Both the position numbers and the translations under genes were made by a program. Positions 20,318-28,766 of a stretch of DNA of 37,122 nucleotides are shown here, one piece after another. The notes beneath the pieces are model-generated. The model searched no databases. It worked only from the letters and a program-made list of their open reading frames with translations, and had not been told where the DNA came from. Each line of letters opens with the position of its first letter. Position 1 is the first letter of the stretch. Origin of the DNA: a virus (Duplodnaviria > Caudoviricetes); IMG/VR virus record IMGVR_UViG_3300005611_000086, positions 1 to 37,122 of that record; one strand, 5' to 3'.

Positions 20318-23300
20318 ATATTCCTTGAGCAATCAGTATTCCCTGACGGGTTATCAGCTTTCTTTGCTCAACCAGTTGCTTGACGATGCGATCCTTTTCA
20401 TCTTGCGGCAAACGTGAATCATTCACTGCCGTAATCTGCTGAGAGATCTTCCGTCTTGCTGATTCGATCTTCCTGATTTGTGGGGCAATCCTAAGCTCTG
20501 CCTCGAACCTAGATATGGCACTGTTGATGCGGTCCACGTCACCGCGCTCAGCCGCCTTCTTGTACTCAGCCGTTGCCCTGTTTACCTGATCACGAACCTC
20601 AATGTATTGAGACACGTCATCCCTGCTGGATACGCTGCGTAAAACCCTACGCATGAACGGGATCTCAGTGGCAATATCTTCTGCGGATTCTGCGGCAGCT
20701 ATTCTTGCTGGTGCTTCAGCGGTACGCTGCACAAACCTACCAGCGCCACCAGTGATGTAGTCGAACCAGAACTCCAAAGAGTTTGGTGACCAATCAATCC
20801 ACCCACTCAGCGTCTCAGTCCCACCTGTCAACTCATTAAGGGCCTGTGTTATGCCAACCGCCGTTGGAGAGGTGTTGTTCCAGTACAGGCTGCTTTGTGA
20901 TGCCACCTGATTTGGGAATGCCTTCTTAACAATATCTCTGCCAGAGAAGTCTGTGTTGGTTCCGTACAATGAGATGAAGGGATCAAACACAGTGGGTGCT
21001 GCGAAGTTCAAGAAGCTTTCAGTGCCACCCAGCGGGTTGAATATCTCAAGGGTTGTGCGCCCAATGGATGCTCCGATCTCTGATGGATCTGATCTACCTT
21101 GAGCCATCTTGGCAAAGTTGCGCCCGACATTGTGGAATGCGTTCATGCCGTATGGCATTGGTATAGAAACATATCCACGTCCAAAGGGGTCCATCACGTC
21201 TGGCAGCATGAACACCATGTTGTGTTCCAGAATGTAGTCTGGGATCTTGTCGTACTGCTTTACCCCATCCTCATCTTCGTCTGACATCATTGAGTTGATT
21301 ATGTCCTGCGTAAAGCCAACAGCTATAACGCCACCCATGATGTTGCGAACCTTCTTTGAGCGAGCCAGTGATCTCAACAGGAAGAAGCTGCCCTGCAAGG
21401 ACGCATTGTAGAACAGGTACAATGAGTTCAAGAATGCCTTGTTGTCACCACCCTTGCCAAAGTCTACGGTCACACTCCTTGCGGCCTGTGCTGCCCTCTC
21501 CTTAGTGACGCCACGACTAACCAAAGCGTCATAAGTGCTAACACGAATGGCGTTTTCCACCACAAGGTTTGAATTATCCATGAACTCTAAGAGCTTCCTA
21601 CCCTTGGCCTTCATCAACCCAAGCTTACCGCTTGCATCAGAGATGTCTGACAATGTGGATTGAAGATCAGATATCTGATCCTGTAATGTGGTCATTGGGT
21701 TGGCAGCACTCGCACCACCGTATGCTCTGAACTCCTTGTATTTCTTTGCCCAGTCAGAGGAATCATCCTTGTTTAGGATGGATCTCTTCAAGCCTTTTGC
21801 TGCCTTCAATACATTTCTAATCGTGTCTTTTCTCAGGCCATCCATTTCAAACTCACTGACCTGTATGCCAGCGGCTTGAACGTCACGAATAAAGTTGGAG
21901 ATAAAGAACTCTGGGTTCCAAGATGTGTTAATGTTTGACAGGTATCTGTTTACCTTAGCCAAACCTCTGGTGATTGTGGCAGCATTGCCAGCATCCCAAA
22001 TGTTTTCTCCATTGAATGCACCCGCAAGATTGTTGTCATAGAACTGAAGGACTTTTTCTTTTCCATCTTCTTTTACAATGGCGATTGATGGGTCATCACG
22101 ATAGGTTCTCGTTGGCTTGATGACAACCGCACCGTTCTGCATCACACGGGCTGATGGTGGTTGATCTAGGATCTCAGCATATCCAGACATGCCTTGAGGG
22201 TTTGATCTAATCAGATCGAGCATAGACTTACCAACCTTGTTACGCTCACCGCGAACAATAGAGTTTGTGTTTTGTAGGATGGTGCTTGCTAGGATATCTC
22301 TGCCGTATGATCTACGACCCAAGGCCCTTTGATCTTCTCTGCCCATAGCGCCATATCTGGATGGCTTGCCGCTGCCGTAGACGCCTTCTTGGTCAACTTC
22401 AAAGTGACCTTTGAGGGGCACATAGAAATCAAAGTTACTATCTTCCATGTCGCCTATGTTCATGTCACTTGACTGAAGACCAGCCGCAACGCGAACAGCG
22501 TTAGTGTCATCAACGATGGCACGAACAGCATCCTCAGCCTGACGCAAAGCTATTTTGTTTTGCGGATCAAGGCTATCAAACCAGTTGAGTATTGCATCAG
22601 CCTCTGCATCAGTCATGCCTGAGCCAGCATCATTGGTGGGGTCCACCGTTCTGATGTATGCGTTTCTCTCCTTAGCATGTTTTGCGTAGAGATAAGTATC
22701 TACGGCGGATAAAGCTTTTGACTTTGTTCCCTCAAACGTGAACTCAGCAAGGCCTTTACCACCACCAGAGTTAGCATTTGACAGTGCCTTTAACTGTTCA
22801 ACCTGCTGCTCTGTGATGTTCATGTTTTTGACAGCATCAGTGGCAGCTTTGTAAATTGTTTCCTTGCGCTCAGTAATCTTACTGCCAGCAATACCTTCAC
22901 TCAGTTGCTGCTTCAGATACGGGTCCATGCTGTCAGCGATCTTGTACTGAGGATTTATTTCCTTCAGTTCTTTGATCATTCTGCCAACAGGAATGAAGCT
23001 GTCCTGTGCTTTCTGAATAAATAGATCCGCTCTCTTCTGTGCCTTTGTCTTGTCGGTGAAGGGCACCAAGCGCAGAGCTTTACCAACCCAGTCAGCGATA
23101 TCAGTGTAGCGTGTCACACGATCCGCTTGCATCGCGTCGAGACCCGTGCCGCTTACAGTGTTCAGTGCGCTCAGTTTGATCTGGCTGTTGCGGATCTTCT
23201 TGCGATCCTTCTTGTCCATAACTGGGAAGAATGTCTTAACGTAATACGGACCCTTTCCGCTGTTACGCTTGCCACGCTCAAGGACAAGGCGCAGGGGTGG

Positions 23301-26300
23301 GCTTTTAGCCATACGGTTATCGAACCACTCCAAAACCAAGTTGCCTCCTGACGGGTACGCTACAACGCTCTCACCGTCCTGATAGCCTTGGCTCTTCCAT
23401 CTGTGCAGTGTGTCGTAGATGGCTTTCTCTACTCGCTTGTATCCTGAGTTCTCTATAAGCTCCTTGTCGTGCAGCCTTTGCTGTATGTGATAGAGGCCAC
23501 CACCATTATCAAACTGGTCATTGCTTCCTTCAGTAAGAAGGACAGGGATAACCTCACCATCAGTCTCCTGTATGCCGCCATATATAATGTCAGTCAGAGT
23601 TCCAGTTCGTTTGACTGGAGTTCTGATTGCTTTGTATGGATCAATAGGTATTTGAGAAAGCTTTTGTGGTGGAAGTTCATTTGAACTTTCTACACCTTCC
23701 ATCGTTGACAGATCTACGTCTGCCTCTGTGATGAATGGCGCTGCCTCTAGTGCTAGTTTTCTAGGGGCGAAGAAGTCTCCCTCTGCAATCGTTGGCTTAA
23801 CCGCATCAACGCTTCCGCTACCTGATCCATCTCCTTCTCGTTGAGAGATGACACCAGCGAGTCTTCCTCGCTCTGCTGCGGGGAGTGAATTTTTGATTTT
23901 GTCATCGCCTATACCTTTGTTTTTCAGGATGTTCAGGGCACCGTCAGCGTAATCGTTGTCATCACCACGGCCCTTACGGACACCACCAGCTTCAAACAAA
24001 CGCTTCTCAGCATACCACATAAGGGCTTGGAAGTCAGCATTAGTTATATCAACACCAGCTTCATCCTTGAGGATCTGCCTTGCACGGTTGGCAACCTCAC
24101 GCATTGCAGTCCTGTCCTGTGCGCTGCGAGGATCTTCTTGTAGTGTTGGGATCAGCTTCTTCTGATATGTTTCAGCGGCCCTCAGAAAGTCTGTCTTTGA
24201 CGGACGTGATGCAGCAGCAAGTTCCTTTACTGTTGCGGCGTCTCGACCAACAGGAGTTTTACTCTTGTTAAGACTGAACTCATACTGTCCAGATGTAAGT
24301 AAATCCTCAACAGTATCTTTGTATGCCTTGGTGTAATAATCTTTATTCCAGATCTTACCAATCACAGGAGCTATCAGAGGTATGTCTGTCTTATCCATTG
24401 TGGATATGTTCAGTTTTCTTTGAGCTTCAAACAGAATGTTTCTATCCATGTCTGTCAGGGGCTGGTCTACTTCAGTAATAAAGTTCCAAACCTTATCAAG
24501 GTTCTGCTCTATCAGCTCGTCTGCATATTTTACTGTGGGGTTACCAGTGATGCGGTTGGCAAAGCGCATCCACCACCTGTCCATGGTTAGAGGATCGTAA
24601 TTACCTCTAAGGTTTTGGTAGAAGCCGTTGCCAATCTTTGGACCTAGTATATACGCCACAGACACCATTGTATCTGCCTCTTCAGCCCCACTTGCTTGGA
24701 ACTCTTTGGGCAAATCTTTAACTCTATTAGCCCCAAGGACATTGAGCATTGTTGTGTTAAGGTCTTTCTTTGGCATCTGCATGGTTAGCAAAGCCTCAAT
24801 GTCATTTGATGACATGCCCTTACGGCTCAGTGTATTCCAGAACTCAAAGGCAGATAGCATAGACCCACCTTGAGCGCCTGATCCTTTAACGGGGAAGGTG
24901 CCATCATCACTAGCCTTCCAAGCGTCATACTGCTCAGATGCAAACCTGTAGTTGTCTATAACTGACAAACCGTTTGACGTGATGGCAGTTGCAAAATCAA
25001 AGGCATGTTCTGCTGCTGGATCATACTCAGAGTTTGGAGAACCGTCAGGCCTCTCCGGTGAGACCTCTGGATATACAGGAAATAAAATACGCTTAGCCAG
25101 CTTGAGTGTGGAGTCATACCAACCAAGAGCATCACTGCCAGATATCAATGCTGCCTCAGCTTCAGCCGCCATGATCCTTGCTGCGTCTTGCTTGTCACGC
25201 TCTGAATTTATTATGTCCAAAGGCGGTACGTTACGCAGGCCAAGAAGTTTCTCAGCAAAGCTAACTAATGTCTCTGAGCCTTCTTTCTTTTTAAATTGAG
25301 GCTGTCCTGTTTTTGGATTAAGGTAATCAAGTATACTCGCATCACGTTGGGCTGGTGTCAGTGGCACCATTGATCTCTTAATGCCAAGAGCCTCAGTGTC
25401 TATGTCACCAAAGGTTGACTCTATCTGATCTGATATGATAGATGTCTCAGTAGAAGGAGTTATGTCAATGGCAGAAGAAGCTTTTGCTCTAGTGGAAGAC
25501 GGAACTTCCCGTGCAGTAATATTTAAATCAGACGGTACATCATCAGTGCGAACACTGGATGGATCTATCAAGCCAGTGGGCACTTTGGTTGGAGAAGAGA
25601 TACCAACCGCAGATGATCTACGGGCATTCCGCGCAGCTTCCAGCATGGAACTCTCTGCGCTTCTCCAAGAAGACTCAGCCTCCTGACGGGAGATACCTGT
25701 CCGATCTAGGGCAGCTTGGAAAGCAGCATCATAATTACGATAGCTCTTTGCGATAGATGCAAAGTATTCTGCCTGTTGATCCTGTAGTTCCTGTTGAGTT
25801 TTATTTCTCCACTCTTCAAAGATCAGGTGGCCCCGTGCTTTCTTCTCTACCTCAAGCTCTCTTAGTGGCAGATACCACTCAACCAACTGACCGTTAGGCA
25901 TACGGATATCAAACGCAATGATGCGCCATCCCCATTCCTTTGGCTCAAACAATTTGTTTGTGTCGATCTTAACTAGGCTTATGCCTTCCTTGAGAAGCTC
26001 ATCGAAGATAGCTGGAACGTCTCTGAAGTCATCAATAACAGTCTTGAACCTGTAAGAATCACGGATGTGTGATGCGTCATGCCAAGGCTTGTTCGCTAAG
26101 ATGGATGGTCTGCTCGCCTTCTGAGTTACCTTTGACAGGTCTTTGATGTTATCACCTGACTTGGTGCCAAACTTCTCATCAATCCTTTTGATAAGACGTT
26201 TAACAAGAGGCACATTCTCTTTCGTTAGCTTTTCTATCTCTGCCCGTATCTGATCATTGGGGGCATTGGTGTTGATAGGCATCCTGATATTCTCAGGCGC

Positions 26301-28766
26301 AACACTATCCTCCTCAACAACTGCATCAATAGGTATAGCTGACTGTTTCGCAGTAGTTACTTCTGTGCGTGATGTCGGGGTCTGTGTGACTGTGGTTACA
26401 GGAGCGCGATCAGCAACACTGCCAGCACCAATCCCACTGAATATAGCACCAACATTATTAAAGCCATTGTCAACATGTGCCCCTACTATGGACCTAAAGA
26501 AATCACCTATCCGCTTGAACAAAGGTCTGGATGTTCCAACATTTTTTAATCTGCCAGCAGTGTAGTCACGATACATTTCTGCAATCGCTTCCTCTTCAAC
26601 AGCAGATAGCCTACCTTTGTCTCCCTTCCGACCGACAAGCTCACCGTTAAGCCTACCAGCGCGGTCCAAGTAAGAGTAAGATCTCTTCTTTCCTTCTCGA
26701 TTTATAAACTTTGTTTTCTTGGCAGCTTTCTTTAGAAGGTTTATTTCCTTGGGCGTGAAGACATTCATATCCACAAGTGCATGAACTGCCTCATGGTTCA
26801 TCACCTCAGCAACGCTGTTAGTGTAATCAGCGTCAGACAGTGAAGGATCGTATACACCAAGAGCCAAGGTAATTGCTTTCTCCTCGCTCATTGGATCGAA
26901 CTGACCCTCGACCAAACTATCTTGACTGCCAATAACCTTCTGGCCCTTGAGGCCAACACGCTTGAGACCCATCTTATCAAGACGTTCTCTAAGGTTATTA
27001 ATCACAGCCTCTTCACGCTGTGTATACTCAGGCTTCTTCTCGACTTGCTCTTTGCTAAGGCCATCGAAGATGGCTCTGGTTTCGCCTCTCTTCTCAGCCG
27101 CCTGAAGCTGTGGGCCTATCTCTGCCCTCAACTGCTCAGGGGTAACTCTACCGGGTATAGCTGAGATTCTCGTAGCAGCTTGAACTTTATATTCATCTGG
27201 CAAGGCAACCAACTTCTGTTGGTTCGATTCGAGCCTATCATTTAATTTGTTCAATTGAACTTTTTTACTATCAAGTTTTGCCTTTACCTCTTCAGGCTTT
27301 ACAGCGTTCCCCTTTGTATCTTTCCCCATCTGGGTTGCATACCTGAAATCCAATTCAAGCACTGGTATTTCTTTGGCGAGTTCGCTTGCTTTTTTTGCGG
27401 CAGTATTGCTGTCACGTCTGATTGCGTTAAGCTTGTTCTCTGCCATCTTTGATGGGGGGGTTACTGTATACTTATCAACCTTCTTTCCTCTTGGAGTTAT
27501 AGATATAACCCCTTGTGACGCGAGAGAATCTCTCGCTTGCTTGATCAATTTATCTGTCTGCTTCTGAGTTTCACCTGAGAGACCAGCTTTTTGTAGGGCA
27601 ATCCTAGCCTTTGGAAATCTTAGCTCACCCTCAACGCGCATAGATGAAAGCAATATATCAGCCGCACGATTAACAACTTGATCTTCTGGAGTGGCTGTCG
27701 GTGCTGGTAATGCTAACTGAACCTGTGGCTCAGGGGCTGATAGTATTTCATCAACCTCTTTAACCTCTTGCTCTGTTTGTTCCAGTCCATATGCAAGCCT
27801 TGTTCTTGCCACCTCTCCCAGCTTGGTTAGGTCTTCATCCAGTTCCTTGGATACTTTATCGGTATCAACGGTGGGAGATACCAAGCCAGCAGCAGAACCT
27901 ATTGCTCCACCGACTACTGCTCCAGAAACAAATGCTTCTTCGTATTCTTTTAAGGCATCTTCATTAAACAATTCTTGTCCAGCTTGTGCCCTGTTTACCA
28001 TGCTTTGAGAAACTTCTTGAAGACCCTCAAGCCCACCAGCTTGCCCACCTTCCATCAAAACTTTTCTGGCACGGCCCGCATCAACTGGCTTAATAAACTT
28101 ACCAATCACAAAGTAATCAATTAAGAACTCAGAGGCTGCATTGATGGCAGTTGCCCCACCCGCTCTTAGAATGCTGGTATCCATACCAGCTTCCTCTTGT
28201 TTATTAATTGCTTCAGCAAACATCTGAGGCAACGCTTTGACTGTTGTGTATCCAACACCCGCCGCCCTAGTAATACCTGCTCCTAATGGGCCAAATGGAA
28301 GACCAACTGCCGTGGCTCCAGCTTGTATGGCCGTATCCTTAGCCTCGCTACCCAACGCCTCACCAGCAAAGCTTGCTGCTGATGACAGATCATTTACATC
28401 GTCATATCTTACAGATGGATCTTCAGCTTCAAGTCTTCTTAACTCTGCCAGTGCATTTCTTTGCTGCTCTTGTGCTGCCTCAGAATCCAAGCCAAACATT
28501 TTGCCAACAAATGTATCTGCAAGAACCTCTTTTGTTTTACCTTGAGCAAGTTGATTTTCATAAGGCTCTCTTTCAAGACCCCGCATGAAGGCAGTTTTAT
28601 CTTCCTCTTCTGGCTCAGGTGGTTGAACTGCAACAGGTGCTTGTTGACGCTTCGATAGAAGGAAGTCGTTTATCTGTTGCTGTTCATTCTCAGTGGGTTC
28701 TGTTCCAGAGATATTTACTGAGTAGTCAATTCCTGTCTGAGGATCTTTGACAAATATTACAGACAT
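20316..28766 (-). CDS. Giant polyvalent (probably virion-ejected) protein, 2816 aa: zincin peptidase, RelA/SpoT-like, HhH/Ogg2-like glycosylase, PBECR-like nuclease, LPD38
   Basis: HEAVH (aa 658) + EEEAIAE; IRDSYRF/GWR/LVEWY/GHLIFEEWR; LGWYD/GPKIGNGFYQNL.G/TMDRW/QALMWY; GGGLYHI...H...VKTFF; C-terminal YLFYNASLQG/IPMPYG. It is the last gene of the late operon. Confidence 0.85.
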   Translation of the reverse strand: MSVIFVKDPQTGIDYSVNISGTEPTENEQQQINDFLLSKRQQAPVAVQPPEPEEEDKTAFMRGLEREPYENQLAQGKTKEVLADTFVGKMFGLDSEAAQEQQRNALAELRRLEAEDPSVRYDDVNDLSSAASFAGEALGSEAKDTAIQAGATAVGLPFGPLGAGITRAAGVGYTTVKALPQMFAEAINKQEEAGMDTSILRAGGATAINAASEFLIDYFVIGKFIKPVDAGRARKVLMEGGQAGGLEGLQEVSQSMVNRAQAGQELFNEDALKEYEEAFVSGAVVGGAIGSAAGLVSPTVDTDKVSKELDEDLTKLGEVARTRLAYGLEQTEQEVKEVDEILSAPEPQVQLALPAPTATPEDQVVNRAADILLSSMRVEGELRFPKARIALQKAGLSGETQKQTDKLIKQARDSLASQGVISITPRGKKVDKYTVTPPSKMAENKLNAIRRDSNTAAKKASELAKEIPVLELDFRYATQMGKDTKGNAVKPEEVKAKLDSKKVQLNKLNDRLESNQQKLVALPDEYKVQAATRISAIPGRVTPEQLRAEIGPQLQAAEKRGETRAIFDGLSKEQVEKKPEYTQREEAVINNLRERLDKMGLKRVGLKGQKVIGSQDSLVEGQFDPMSEEKAITLALGVYDPSLSDADYTNSVAEVMNHEAVHALVDMNVFTPKEINLLKKAAKKTKFINREGKKRSYSYLDRAGRLNGELVGRKGDKGRLSAVEEEAIAEMYRDYTAGRLKNVGTSRPLFKRIGDFFRSIVGAHVDNGFNNVGAIFSGIGAGSVADRAPVTTVTQTPTSRTEVTTAKQSAIPIDAVVEEDSVAPENIRMPINTNAPNDQIRAEIEKLTKENVPLVKRLIKRIDEKFGTKSGDNIKDLSKVTQKASRPSILANKPWHDASHIRDSYRFKTVIDDFRDVPAIFDELLKEGISLVKIDTNKLFEPKEWGWRIIAFDIRMPNGQLVEWYLPLRELEVEKKARGHLIFEEWRNKTQQELQDQQAEYFASIAKSYRNYDAAFQAALDRTGISRQEAESSWRSAESSMLEAARNARRSSAVGISSPTKVPTGLIDPSSVRTDDVPSDLNITAREVPSSTRAKASSAIDITPSTETSIISDQIESTFGDIDTEALGIKRSMVPLTPAQRDASILDYLNPKTGQPQFKKKEGSETLVSFAEKLLGLRNVPPLDIINSERDKQDAARIMAAEAEAALISGSDALGWYDSTLKLAKRILFPVYPEVSPERPDGSPNSEYDPAAEHAFDFATAITSNGLSVIDNYRFASEQYDAWKASDDGTFPVKGSGAQGGSMLSAFEFWNTLSRKGMSSNDIEALLTMQMPKKDLNTTMLNVLGANRVKDLPKEFQASGAEEADTMVSVAYILGPKIGNGFYQNLRGNYDPLTMDRWWMRFANRITGNPTVKYADELIEQNLDKVWNFITEVDQPLTDMDRNILFEAQRKLNISTMDKTDIPLIAPVIGKIWNKDYYTKAYKDTVEDLLTSGQYEFSLNKSKTPVGRDAATVKELAAASRPSKTDFLRAAETYQKKLIPTLQEDPRSAQDRTAMREVANRARQILKDEAGVDITNADFQALMWYAEKRLFEAGGVRKGRGDDNDYADGALNILKNKGIGDDKIKNSLPAAERGRLAGVISQREGDGSGSGSVDAVKPTIAEGDFFAPRKLALEAAPFITEADVDLSTMEGVESSNELPPQKLSQIPIDPYKAIRTPVKRTGTLTDIIYGGIQETDGEVIPVLLTEGSNDQFDNGGGLYHIQQRLHDKELIENSGYKRVEKAIYDTLHRWKSQGYQDGESVVAYPSGGNLVLEWFDNRMAKSPPLRLVLERGKRNSGKGPYYVKTFFPVMDKKDRKKIRNSQIKLSALNTVSGTGLDAMQADRVTRYTDIADWVGKALRLVPFTDKTKAQKRADLFIQKAQDSFIPVGRMIKELKEINPQYKIADSMDPYLKQQLSEGIAGSKITERKETIYKAATDAVKNMNITEQQVEQLKALSNANSGGGKGLAEFTFEGTKSKALSAVDTYLYAKHAKERNAYIRTVDPTNDAGSGMTDAEADAILNWFDSLDPQNKIALRQAEDAVRAIVDDTNAVRVAAGLQSSDMNIGDMEDSNFDFYVPLKGHFEVDQEGVYGSGKPSRYGAMGREDQRALGRRSYGRDILASTILQNTNSIVRGERNKVGKSMLDLIRSNPQGMSGYAEILDQPPSARVMQNGAVVIKPTRTYRDDPSIAIVKEDGKEKVLQFYDNNLAGAFNGENIWDAGNAATITRGLAKVNRYLSNINTSWNPEFFISNFIRDVQAAGIQVSEFEMDGLRKDTIRNVLKAAKGLKRSILNKDDSSDWAKKYKEFRAYGGASAANPMTTLQDQISDLQSTLSDISDASGKLGLMKAKGRKLLEFMDNSNLVVENAIRVSTYDALVSRGVTKERAAQAARSVTVDFGKGGDNKAFLNSLYLFYNASLQGSFFLLRSLARSKKVRNIMGGVIAVGFTQDIINSMMSDEDEDGVKQYDKIPDYILEHNMVFMLPDVMDPFGRGYVSIPMPYGMNAFHNVGRNFAKMAQGRSDPSEIGASIGRTTLEIFNPLGGTESFLNFAAPTVFDPFISLYGTNTDFSGRDIVKKAFPNQVASQSSLYWNNTSPTAVGITQALNELTGGTETLSGWIDWSPNSLEFWFDYITGGAGRFVQRTAEAPARIAAAESAEDIATEIPFMRRVLRSVSSRDDVSQYIEVRDQVNRATAEYKKAAERGDVDRINSAISRFEAELRIAPQIRKIESARRKISQQITAVNDSRLPQDEKDRIVKQLVEQRKLITRQGILIAQGI
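23753..23905 (-). CDS. Candidate nested (+1 frame) gene inside the giant ORF, 50 aa
   Basis: MTKSKIHSPQQSEEDSLVSSLNEKEMDQVAEALMRLSQRLQRETSSPLEN*; AAAGG 8 nt upstream; amphipathic acidic helix; sits in the linker right after the glycosylase-like domain. Confidence 0.5.
   Translation of the reverse strand: MTKSKIHSPQQSEEDSLVSSLNEKEMDQVAEALMRLSQRLQRETSSPLEN
25468..25686 (+). CDS. Candidate antisense nested gene inside the giant ORF, 72 aa (putative antitoxin of the RelA/SpoT-like domain)
   Basis: SD AAGGAG (25454-25459) 8 nt before the ATG; extended -10 TGATATGAT (25431-25439); product MAEEAFALVEDGTSRAVIFKSDGTSSVRTLDGSIKPVGTLVGEEIPTADDLRAFRAASSMELSALLQEDSAS. Confidence 0.6.
   Translation: MAEEAFALVEDGTSRAVIFKSDGTSSVRTLDGSIKPVGTLVGEEIPTADDLRAFRAASSMELSALLQEDSAS

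Follow-up and report, generated by a model that had tools for sequence, protein, structure and literature searches.

The 37-kb virus record IMGVR_UViG_3300005611_000086 (Caudoviricetes; 37,122 nucleotides, ~62% complete), which in its whole length we call the window, encodes a 2816-amino-acid (aa) polyvalent protein, here the giant. We found that the giant contains a predicted helix-hairpin-helix (HhH) glycosylase-fold domain and that a 50-aa gene is overprinted in the +1 frame directly behind it. Our best reading, to which we give a probability of roughly 0.55, is that the domain is an injected base-excising effector and the overprinted gene encodes its inhibitor. We report the predicted fold, the conservation of a Lys and an Asp, selection on the +1 frame, and linkage of domain and small gene across several phage architectures. 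A first-pass annotation had described this region as the second effector/inhibitor pair of one gene; the HhH fold (as a prediction), the conserved Lys and Asp, the +1 gene and, in stand-alone relatives, an effector-immunity layout hold up, and the acidic mimicry that it proposed for the inhibitor does not. Feature coordinates are collected in Table 1.

Selection on the overprinted +1 frame

The 50-aa sequence and the AAAGG word eight nucleotides (nt) upstream of its start are exactly as first quoted. The open reading frame (ORF) lies over a stretch of the giant's own frame (the main frame) that had been described as rich in G, R, D and S, and this holds: the linker has 41% of these residues compared with 27.5% in the whole protein, and 4.5% of 51-aa segments are equally rich. 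The +1 frame of the giant contains 33 stop-free stretches of at least 35 codons, 9 of them of at least 50, and judged from the window by itself the ORF could have arisen by chance. We accepted it as real because of its conservation across relatives rather than its length in the window.

Window-like loci were collapsed to 52 clusters at 85% nucleotide identity, leaving out one short locus without an anchor. An ATG (45 clusters) or GTG (7 clusters) start was kept in 52/52 clusters, 15 to 17 codons past a conserved DY motif, and the ORF was 46 to 93 aa long. The main-frame codon over the start ended in T in every cluster (GAT 24, AAT 19, AGT 4, CGT 3, TAT 2), so that the start codon was preserved over five different main-frame amino acids; comparable Asp and Asn codons in the domain body ended in T in 247 of 432 cases (57%; first 29 clusters). 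A Shine-Dalgarno (SD)-like word was found in 52/52 clusters, partly owed to main-frame K/E-G codons. Finally, the +1 frame was open across 40 codons in 52/52 clusters, compared with 18.8 expected from synonymous re-encoding, and the +2 frame in 0/52.

Isolated changes were then counted on a spanning tree linking 22 close sequences. Those synonymous for the main-frame protein and nonsynonymous for the +1 protein fell from 55 per 1000 opportunities to 13 within the ORF; the opposite class, synonymous in the +1 frame only, reached 10.4 per 1000 there, compared with 0.4 in the domain and 1.0 downstream. This substitution pattern shows dual-coding selection. The ORF core is conserved at 43% as a +1 protein and at 35% in the main frame. 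As in a dual-coding gene, the start is kept, stops are depleted and the second frame is under selection; on this comparative evidence the ORF at 23905-23753 is very likely a real gene, as the first-pass annotation had claimed.

The conserved features of the peptide are hydrophobic. Seven positions (17, 18, 21, 26, 29, 30 and 33) are hydrophobic in 45 to 52 of the 52 clusters, His7 is kept in 51, and the helix at residues 22-41 of the window peptide is amphipathic, with 1.4% of shuffles reaching its moment. The helix had been called acidic and amphipathic; the second term stands, and the window peptide is only mildly acidic (9 D/E, 6 K/R, net charge −3, pI 4.9). Across the family, the net charge of the first 45 residues ranges from −5 to +7 with a median of about 0, and that of residues 10-40 has a median of about −2.5. 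DNA-mimic inhibitors of the Ocr/Ugi type have a strong, conserved negative charge. An acidic DNA mimic is therefore not supported, as charge is not conserved in this family; the peptide's character fits a helical binder instead. The peptide had no usable match in Atlas and no significant match in Pfam or PHROG. A profile of the peptide matched 9 gene calls among 58 candidates taken without genomic context. One of these 9, the 56-aa gene call P0154, has an N-terminus apparently free of main-frame constraint and is possibly an orphan inhibitor; its placement on a contig was confirmed in none of 160 stretches.

Predicted fold and active site of the domain

All of the motifs first quoted for the domain are present in the 2816-aa ORF: LGWYD at aa 1214, AITSNG at 1261, LGPKIG at 1374, LTMDRW at 1393 and DFQALMWY at 1578. 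The extent first given, aa ~1210-1590, was somewhat too narrow. The model places the domain at about aa 1189-1625, and because of this greater width the start of the +1 ORF falls within the domain's last helix. Among representatives clustered at 50%, 1478 relatives were found at E ≤ 0.001, and those that scored best are mostly parts of long proteins. The domain occurs in LPD38 polyproteins, in head-module genes and in bacterial chromosomes, and for all this breadth it is unnamed. Limnohabitans phage DC33 (PQ492659.1) is a cultured phage that has it.

We compared models of the domain with 48,161 chains using VIA-align. For the window domain, the top 23 rows were all HhH-fold and the first unrelated row had Z 4.8. 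The best match was Thermotoga maritima OGG2 (3n0u; Z 10.6, root-mean-square deviation (rmsd) 4.0, 195 aligned), and others were Qng1 (Z 9.4 and 9.1), NTHL1, EndoIII, MagIII, AGOG and the phage gp46 glycinyltransferase (Z 6.9). A second model, of a 298-aa relative (predicted local distance difference test (pLDDT) 91.1), matched 3n0u with Z 10.2 (rmsd 4.0, 173 aligned); its top 26 rows were glycosylase-fold, with MagIII and NTHL1 tied with OGG2 and Qng1 lower by 1.1. Because an unbroken run of one superfamily tops the lists for two models, the domain is predicted to adopt the two-lobed helical HhH-GPD superfamily fold. The HhH claim is thus supported, with OGG2 the best or tied-best VIA-align match for both models; Foldseek, one of the checks proposed with the claim, gave no significant match. 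With the 298-aa relative, four of the top six Foldseek rows were AGOG/OGG2, all weak. Foldseek against the viral library found other phage polyproteins only, and sequence-profile searches of the PDB with the domain gave no match.

The domain is distantly similar to DUF7178 (PF23802), which is its Atlas neighbour. Weak matches to it were found in 12 of 43 relatives of the window domain at E ≤ 0.1, the best at 7e-5, and in 19 of 58 in a second set, the best at 5e-6; scores in relatives were, for example, 23.3 and 19.8 bits against a curated cut-off of 27 bits. The family model has 193 positions, and the window domain itself had no DUF7178 match in the Pfam search.

Lys1377 is Lys in 196 of 197 aligned relatives (the remaining one being X) and was in no search pattern, and Asp1396 is Asp in 197/197, a count to which the searches themselves contributed, TMD being part of several of their patterns. 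The spacing from Lys to Asp is 19 in the window, 18 in one clade and 18 in the 20 OGG2 proteins that we fetched, which share K-x4-F-x2-N-x-G...D. The K-F-N-G-D series of the domain follows this bifunctional glycosylase pattern, the correspondence of Lys and Asp with OGG2 being by motif. The proposed catalytic Lys and Asp are thus both conserved at an OGG2-like spacing.

The OGG2-type identity proposed with them fails on the C-terminal Lys. In OGG2 this Lys is strictly conserved and its carboxylate reads 8-oxoguanine (8-oxoG), according to the accessible part of PMC3397491. All 20 fetched OGG2 proteins end in a Lys 9 residues after a Trp. No such Lys stands at the domain end: the window chain runs on for ~1230 aa, and stand-alone relatives end in other residues. 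Pfam PF22175 (OGG2) gave 0/1 match in the window's own genome. With neither a C-terminal Lys nor a PF22175 match, OGG2 membership was ruled out, and we predict from the models that the domain works like a bifunctional HhH glycosylase that is not an OGG2; 8-oxoG specificity is not predicted for it. The domain resembles T. maritima OGG2 (TM1821, 3n0u) in its predicted HhH fold, its K..F..N..G..D series and a C-terminal helix ending in WY. It differs in being about twice as long, with large helical insertions and an invariant W-x2-R-x3-R patch that have no counterpart in the OGG2 alignment, in having Trp in place of the OGG2 His at the second residue past the Asp, and in sitting inside a virion protein with a partner gene.

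Linkage in distant clades, mechanism and rival explanations

To the window-like loci (all loci are cited by our L numbers) we added distant clades from three further scans, taking the 80 best loci of each and leaving out 12 loci with no anchor or a short flank. Where the main frame continues, the +1 frame was open in 38/40, 36/42 and 29/43 clusters of three distant clades, with 23.9, 24.3 and 18.0 expected. A peptide-like ORF is retained even where the gene terminates shortly behind the domain, as in all 11 such clusters of clade A4. Five loci (L189, L194, L203, L205 and L217) encode the enzyme on its own, in genes of 426-435 aa, and a following gene with a YAPW-type peptide begins 1 nt ahead of the enzyme's stop codon; in L198 the downstream start lies 17 nt before the enzyme stop, and the YAPW-type peptide heads a 549-aa head-module protein. 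The peptide forms the N-terminus of 118-166-aa proteins in five loci. An effector-immunity layout is thus seen in stand-alone relatives, with the small gene coupled directly downstream in 6 loci. Free and nested YAPW peptides matched each other in hhalign with a probability of 98% (E 7e-14; reversed control 0.8%), and the motif is therefore independent of any overlapping frame. L216 and L214 bridge the window clade to the YAPW peptides. Many +1 peptides (L264-L343, clade A5; L130, L140, L146, L147, L184 and L246) share an AM-x2-HPGLTRE-x-AE-like C-terminal extension, which suggests a second small helical module.

The stand-alone enzyme gene of L205 sits between portal and scaffold genes, and L189, L203 and L217 look similar by eye. 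Genes in this position, both the stand-alone enzymes and their neighbours, share a short TFNPDEARDEHGKW-like N-terminal tag (L189:1667, L194:431 and 1405, L203:2258, L205:2261 and 3974, L217:2309 and 4004), a candidate capsid-packaging signal. Stand-alone copies were also found on bacterial chromosomes: L168:4734-6434 (Methylobacterium hispanicum) has intact Lys/Asp and an overlapping small ORF; L180:4671-6330 (Mesorhizobium) is interrupted by a stop, has an overlapping small ORF and lies near an ART-PolyVal gene; and L170 is a further chromosomal copy. Loss of the peptide does not track loss of the Lys or the Asp. In part of clade A6 (L388-L422) the Lys and Asp are intact, GPK is often replaced by GAK or GDK, and there is no +1 peptide; this subgroup may have a different substrate or control. 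The GAK/GDK replacement often coincides with peptide loss, but GAK also occurs with the peptide, and we base no conclusion on it.

The pair would, in our preferred reading, be a mobile two-gene module consisting of a predicted HhH DNA glycosylase/apurinic-apyrimidinic (AP) lyase and a small gene for its cognate inhibitor. A single mRNA of late infection would yield both proteins, translation of the peptide beginning from its own SD and start. The peptide's conserved hydrophobic helix face and HSP/YAPW motif would make the contacts with the domain, and this binding would shield phage DNA during replication and packaging. The giant would then be packaged and ejected, probably cut by the HExxH peptidase that it contains, and would arrive in the new cell with no newly made peptide; there Lys1377 would excise a base and nick the DNA. 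We put even odds on host or competitor DNA as the substrate, clearly lower odds on host-added marks or lesions on the phage's own DNA, and low odds on anything else. The stand-alone coupled pair may be the ancestral form: the effector would have been built into the polyprotein with the downstream gene retained, and the main frame would then have read through the retained gene as the G/R/D/S linker.

Several results weigh against this reading. Our clusters are related to each other, so that counts such as 52/52 are not those of independent trials. VIA-align Z scores below about 13 in helical proteins may reflect a common arrangement, and those observed are 10-11; Foldseek against the PDB returned nothing at E ≤ 0.001 for either the window-domain or the 298-aa-relative model, hhalign of the domain with the 20 OGG2 sequences gave a non-significant probability of 0.4-1.2%, and Qng1 and phage gp46 share the HhH fold with different chemistry. 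Window-clade and YAPW-clade peptides matched moderately (hhalign 52%, E 1.4e-4, control 0.3%), and the window-clade peptide compared directly with six free peptides reached a probability of 2%. In clade A6, about 20 of the 52 clusters keep the Lys and Asp with no recognisable +1 peptide, and these include all 9 in which the gene stops immediately behind the domain; not every family member thus requires the partner. Finally, no conserved nested ORF was found in 8 loci behind the giant's next domain, aa ~1700-1870.

These points leave room for other explanations. The peptide could be real and bind the domain as a folding chaperone, packaging adaptor or activator, which would entail the same linkage and amphipathic helix; the proteins that the peptide heads in L198 and five other loci speak for an adaptor, and the one sub-group without a peptide though its Lys/Asp are intact counts on the same side. 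We consider this rather improbable, as different domains have their own unrelated nested genes that are gained and lost together with them, as cognate immunity genes are, and stand-alone enzymes already have a shared N-terminal tag resembling a packaging signal, the role of which is putative. A little less probable still is that the HhH fold serves another chemistry, Qng1-like nucleotide hydrolysis or gp46-like base transfer, and that the peptide is a regulator. The Qng1 and gp46 matches, the narrow ranking in the second model, and the insertions and W-x2-R-x3-R patch absent from the OGG2 alignment are in keeping with it, while the K-F-N-G-D series matches the bifunctional glycosylase pattern and OGG2 is in the top row for both models.

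The remaining explanations concern the ORF and its partner. Programmed frameshifting into the +1 frame, producing a shortened polyprotein that ends in enzyme plus peptide, would account for the nested frame being +1 in all four clades and lying directly behind the domain. Three observations make it quite unlikely: the start codon survives ATG/GTG swaps with an SD-like word present, in the window, as in others, a +1 stop precedes the ATG by two codons, and the stand-alone versions are ordinary stop-start coupling in a different frame. We find it very unlikely that the peptide acts on its own as a small effector aimed at a host protein and simply hitch-hikes with the domain. One subclade does lack the peptide and peptides diverge strongly between clades, but the peptide stays directly behind the domain in polyproteins, in head-module genes and in the chromosomal L168 and L180. 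That the ORF arises only as a side effect of residues conserved in the main frame (K/E-G-x-S-D-D-x-I, L-P) is hardly credible and largely refuted: its ATG and SD do overlap conserved main-frame codons and long +1 stretches are frequent in the giant, but the start is kept over five main-frame amino acids, the substitution pattern is that of dual coding, and a related peptide is conserved where no main frame overlaps.

The giant protein, known systems and other nested genes

The giant belongs with the phage-type polyvalent proteins described by Iyer et al. 2017 (PMC5512222): it is large and multidomain, has LPD38 and HEAVH, has virion genes as neighbours and swaps domains among relatives. The role of such a peptidase (MPTase) in polyvalent proteins is described in the same source. 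Genes in the window include terminase, portal, primase-helicase and endolysin, and the gene upstream of the giant weakly matched a DNA ejection protein PHROG (E 5e-4). From this gene context and from PMC5512222, packaging of the giant into the virion and its injection together with the phage DNA are likely. No base-modification genes were recognised among the 24 window proteins scanned at E ≤ 1e-5, in a genome that is ~62% complete. An internal promoter is unsupported, as a scan gave 2 sites with 3.4 expected. Contigs spanning the gene were found in four metatranscriptome runs of one study, RNA-library contigs that show neither strand, level nor frame.

Table 1. Features of the giant gene and its nested genes in the window (nucleotide positions)
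Feature	Position	Strand	Remark
Polyvalent virion-module protein, 2816 aa	20316..28766	-	LPD38 at C-terminus; closes the minus-strand structural block
LPD38 domain, aa 2504-2704	20655..21257	-	Pfam E 1e-38
Overprinted +1-frame gene, 50 aa	23753..23905	-	HSP motif ahead of a helix-turn-amphipathic helix; predicted to be the HhH domain's partner and inhibitor
HhH-superfamily glycosylase-fold domain, aa ~1189-1625	23892..25202	-	AlphaFold2 (AF2) pLDDT 93.7; distantly DUF7178-like
SD-like AAAGG	23914..23918	-	8 nt before the +1 ATG; from sequence
Asp1396	24579..24581	-	predicted catalytic Asp (TMDRW)
Lys1377	24636..24638	-	predicted catalytic nucleophile (GPKIG)
Antisense nested gene, 73 aa	25465..25686	+	strong AGAAGGAG SD; in linker behind the aa ~840-1025 domain ("first pair")
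Upstream effector-like domain, aa ~840-1025	25692..26249	-	close relatives share it at 75-99% identity, others lack it
HEAVH (HExxH) zincin-like peptidase motif, aa 658-662	26781..26795	-	from sequence

Known systems offer partial likenesses. The closest tested precedent is Apk2/IapK of the MuF polymorphic toxins of temperate phages (accessible part of PMC12226406), a phage toxin with a downstream immunity protein that occludes its active site; in both cases a head-associated effector is followed by a cognate, faster-diverging partner gene. In Apk2/IapK, however, the toxin is C-terminal and the immunity gene separate and downstream, whereas the effector in the window is internal and its partner overprinted; toxicity has been demonstrated for Apk2, and the window effector is known from sequence and models. 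The Dag host HhH glycosylases, which act in anti-phage defence, likewise repurpose this fold for phage-host conflict according to the accessible part of bioRxiv 10.1101/2025.10.29.685425; comparing by description only, Dag is host-encoded and targets modified phage DNA, while the window enzyme comes from a phage and is likely carried in its virion. As a DNA glycosylase delivered by a phage, it would be a mirror image of these recently found host enzymes. The polyvalent proteins of PMC5512222 share LPD38, the HExxH motif, swappable effector domains and the virion-gene context; its main text has 0 occurrences of "glycosylase" or "overlap", its accessible part describes no nested partner genes, and its supplements may name the domain otherwise. 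In a literature search that left subscription papers mostly uncovered, we found no paper on the domain, on nested immunity or partner genes in polyvalent proteins, or with the term "DUF7178".

Other domains also carry nested genes, in line with the general design that had been suggested for these proteins. The antisense 73-aa ORF was present in 39/40 loci carrying the aa ~840-1025 domain (re-fetched contigs and the window included) and in none without that domain. This domain had no match in Pfam or PDB sequences; its "RelA/SpoT-like" label is our presumption from a motif resemblance. Behind a further, unnamed domain (GGFVVAP...YLGGW) of relatives lies a conserved +1 ORF that has an ATG in 9/9 clusters and encodes an L-x2-L-x3-L-x2-QG-type helix, in a linker before or near the HhH domain (L005, L016, L009, L083, L088, L090, L098, L106, L107, L119 and L048). 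Judged from these loci, the nested-gene design is common but not universal. We tentatively propose, at somewhat less than even odds, that polyvalent virion proteins are chains of effector-immunity modules, each with its inhibitor overprinted (+1 or antisense) in the linker behind it, paired here with a new class of virion-delivered base-excising HhH effectors.

Such a hidden gene would explain how a phage can produce polyvalent proteins of potential toxicity and stay unharmed. Should nested inhibitors prove general, they are being overlooked by standard gene calling, and a large set of small inhibitors missing from annotation could be read off linker frames; they could then serve as antidotes for cloning and assaying effectors, as markers of toxic unknown domains and as natural examples of effector-antidote overlap. 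Two further loci pairs (L002/L081 and L016/L095) have a P-loop kinase-like domain, presumably zeta-like, followed by an open +1 frame in 2/2 clusters. In L002 this domain replaces the RelA-like domain, and the HhH domain is 96% identical to that of the window.

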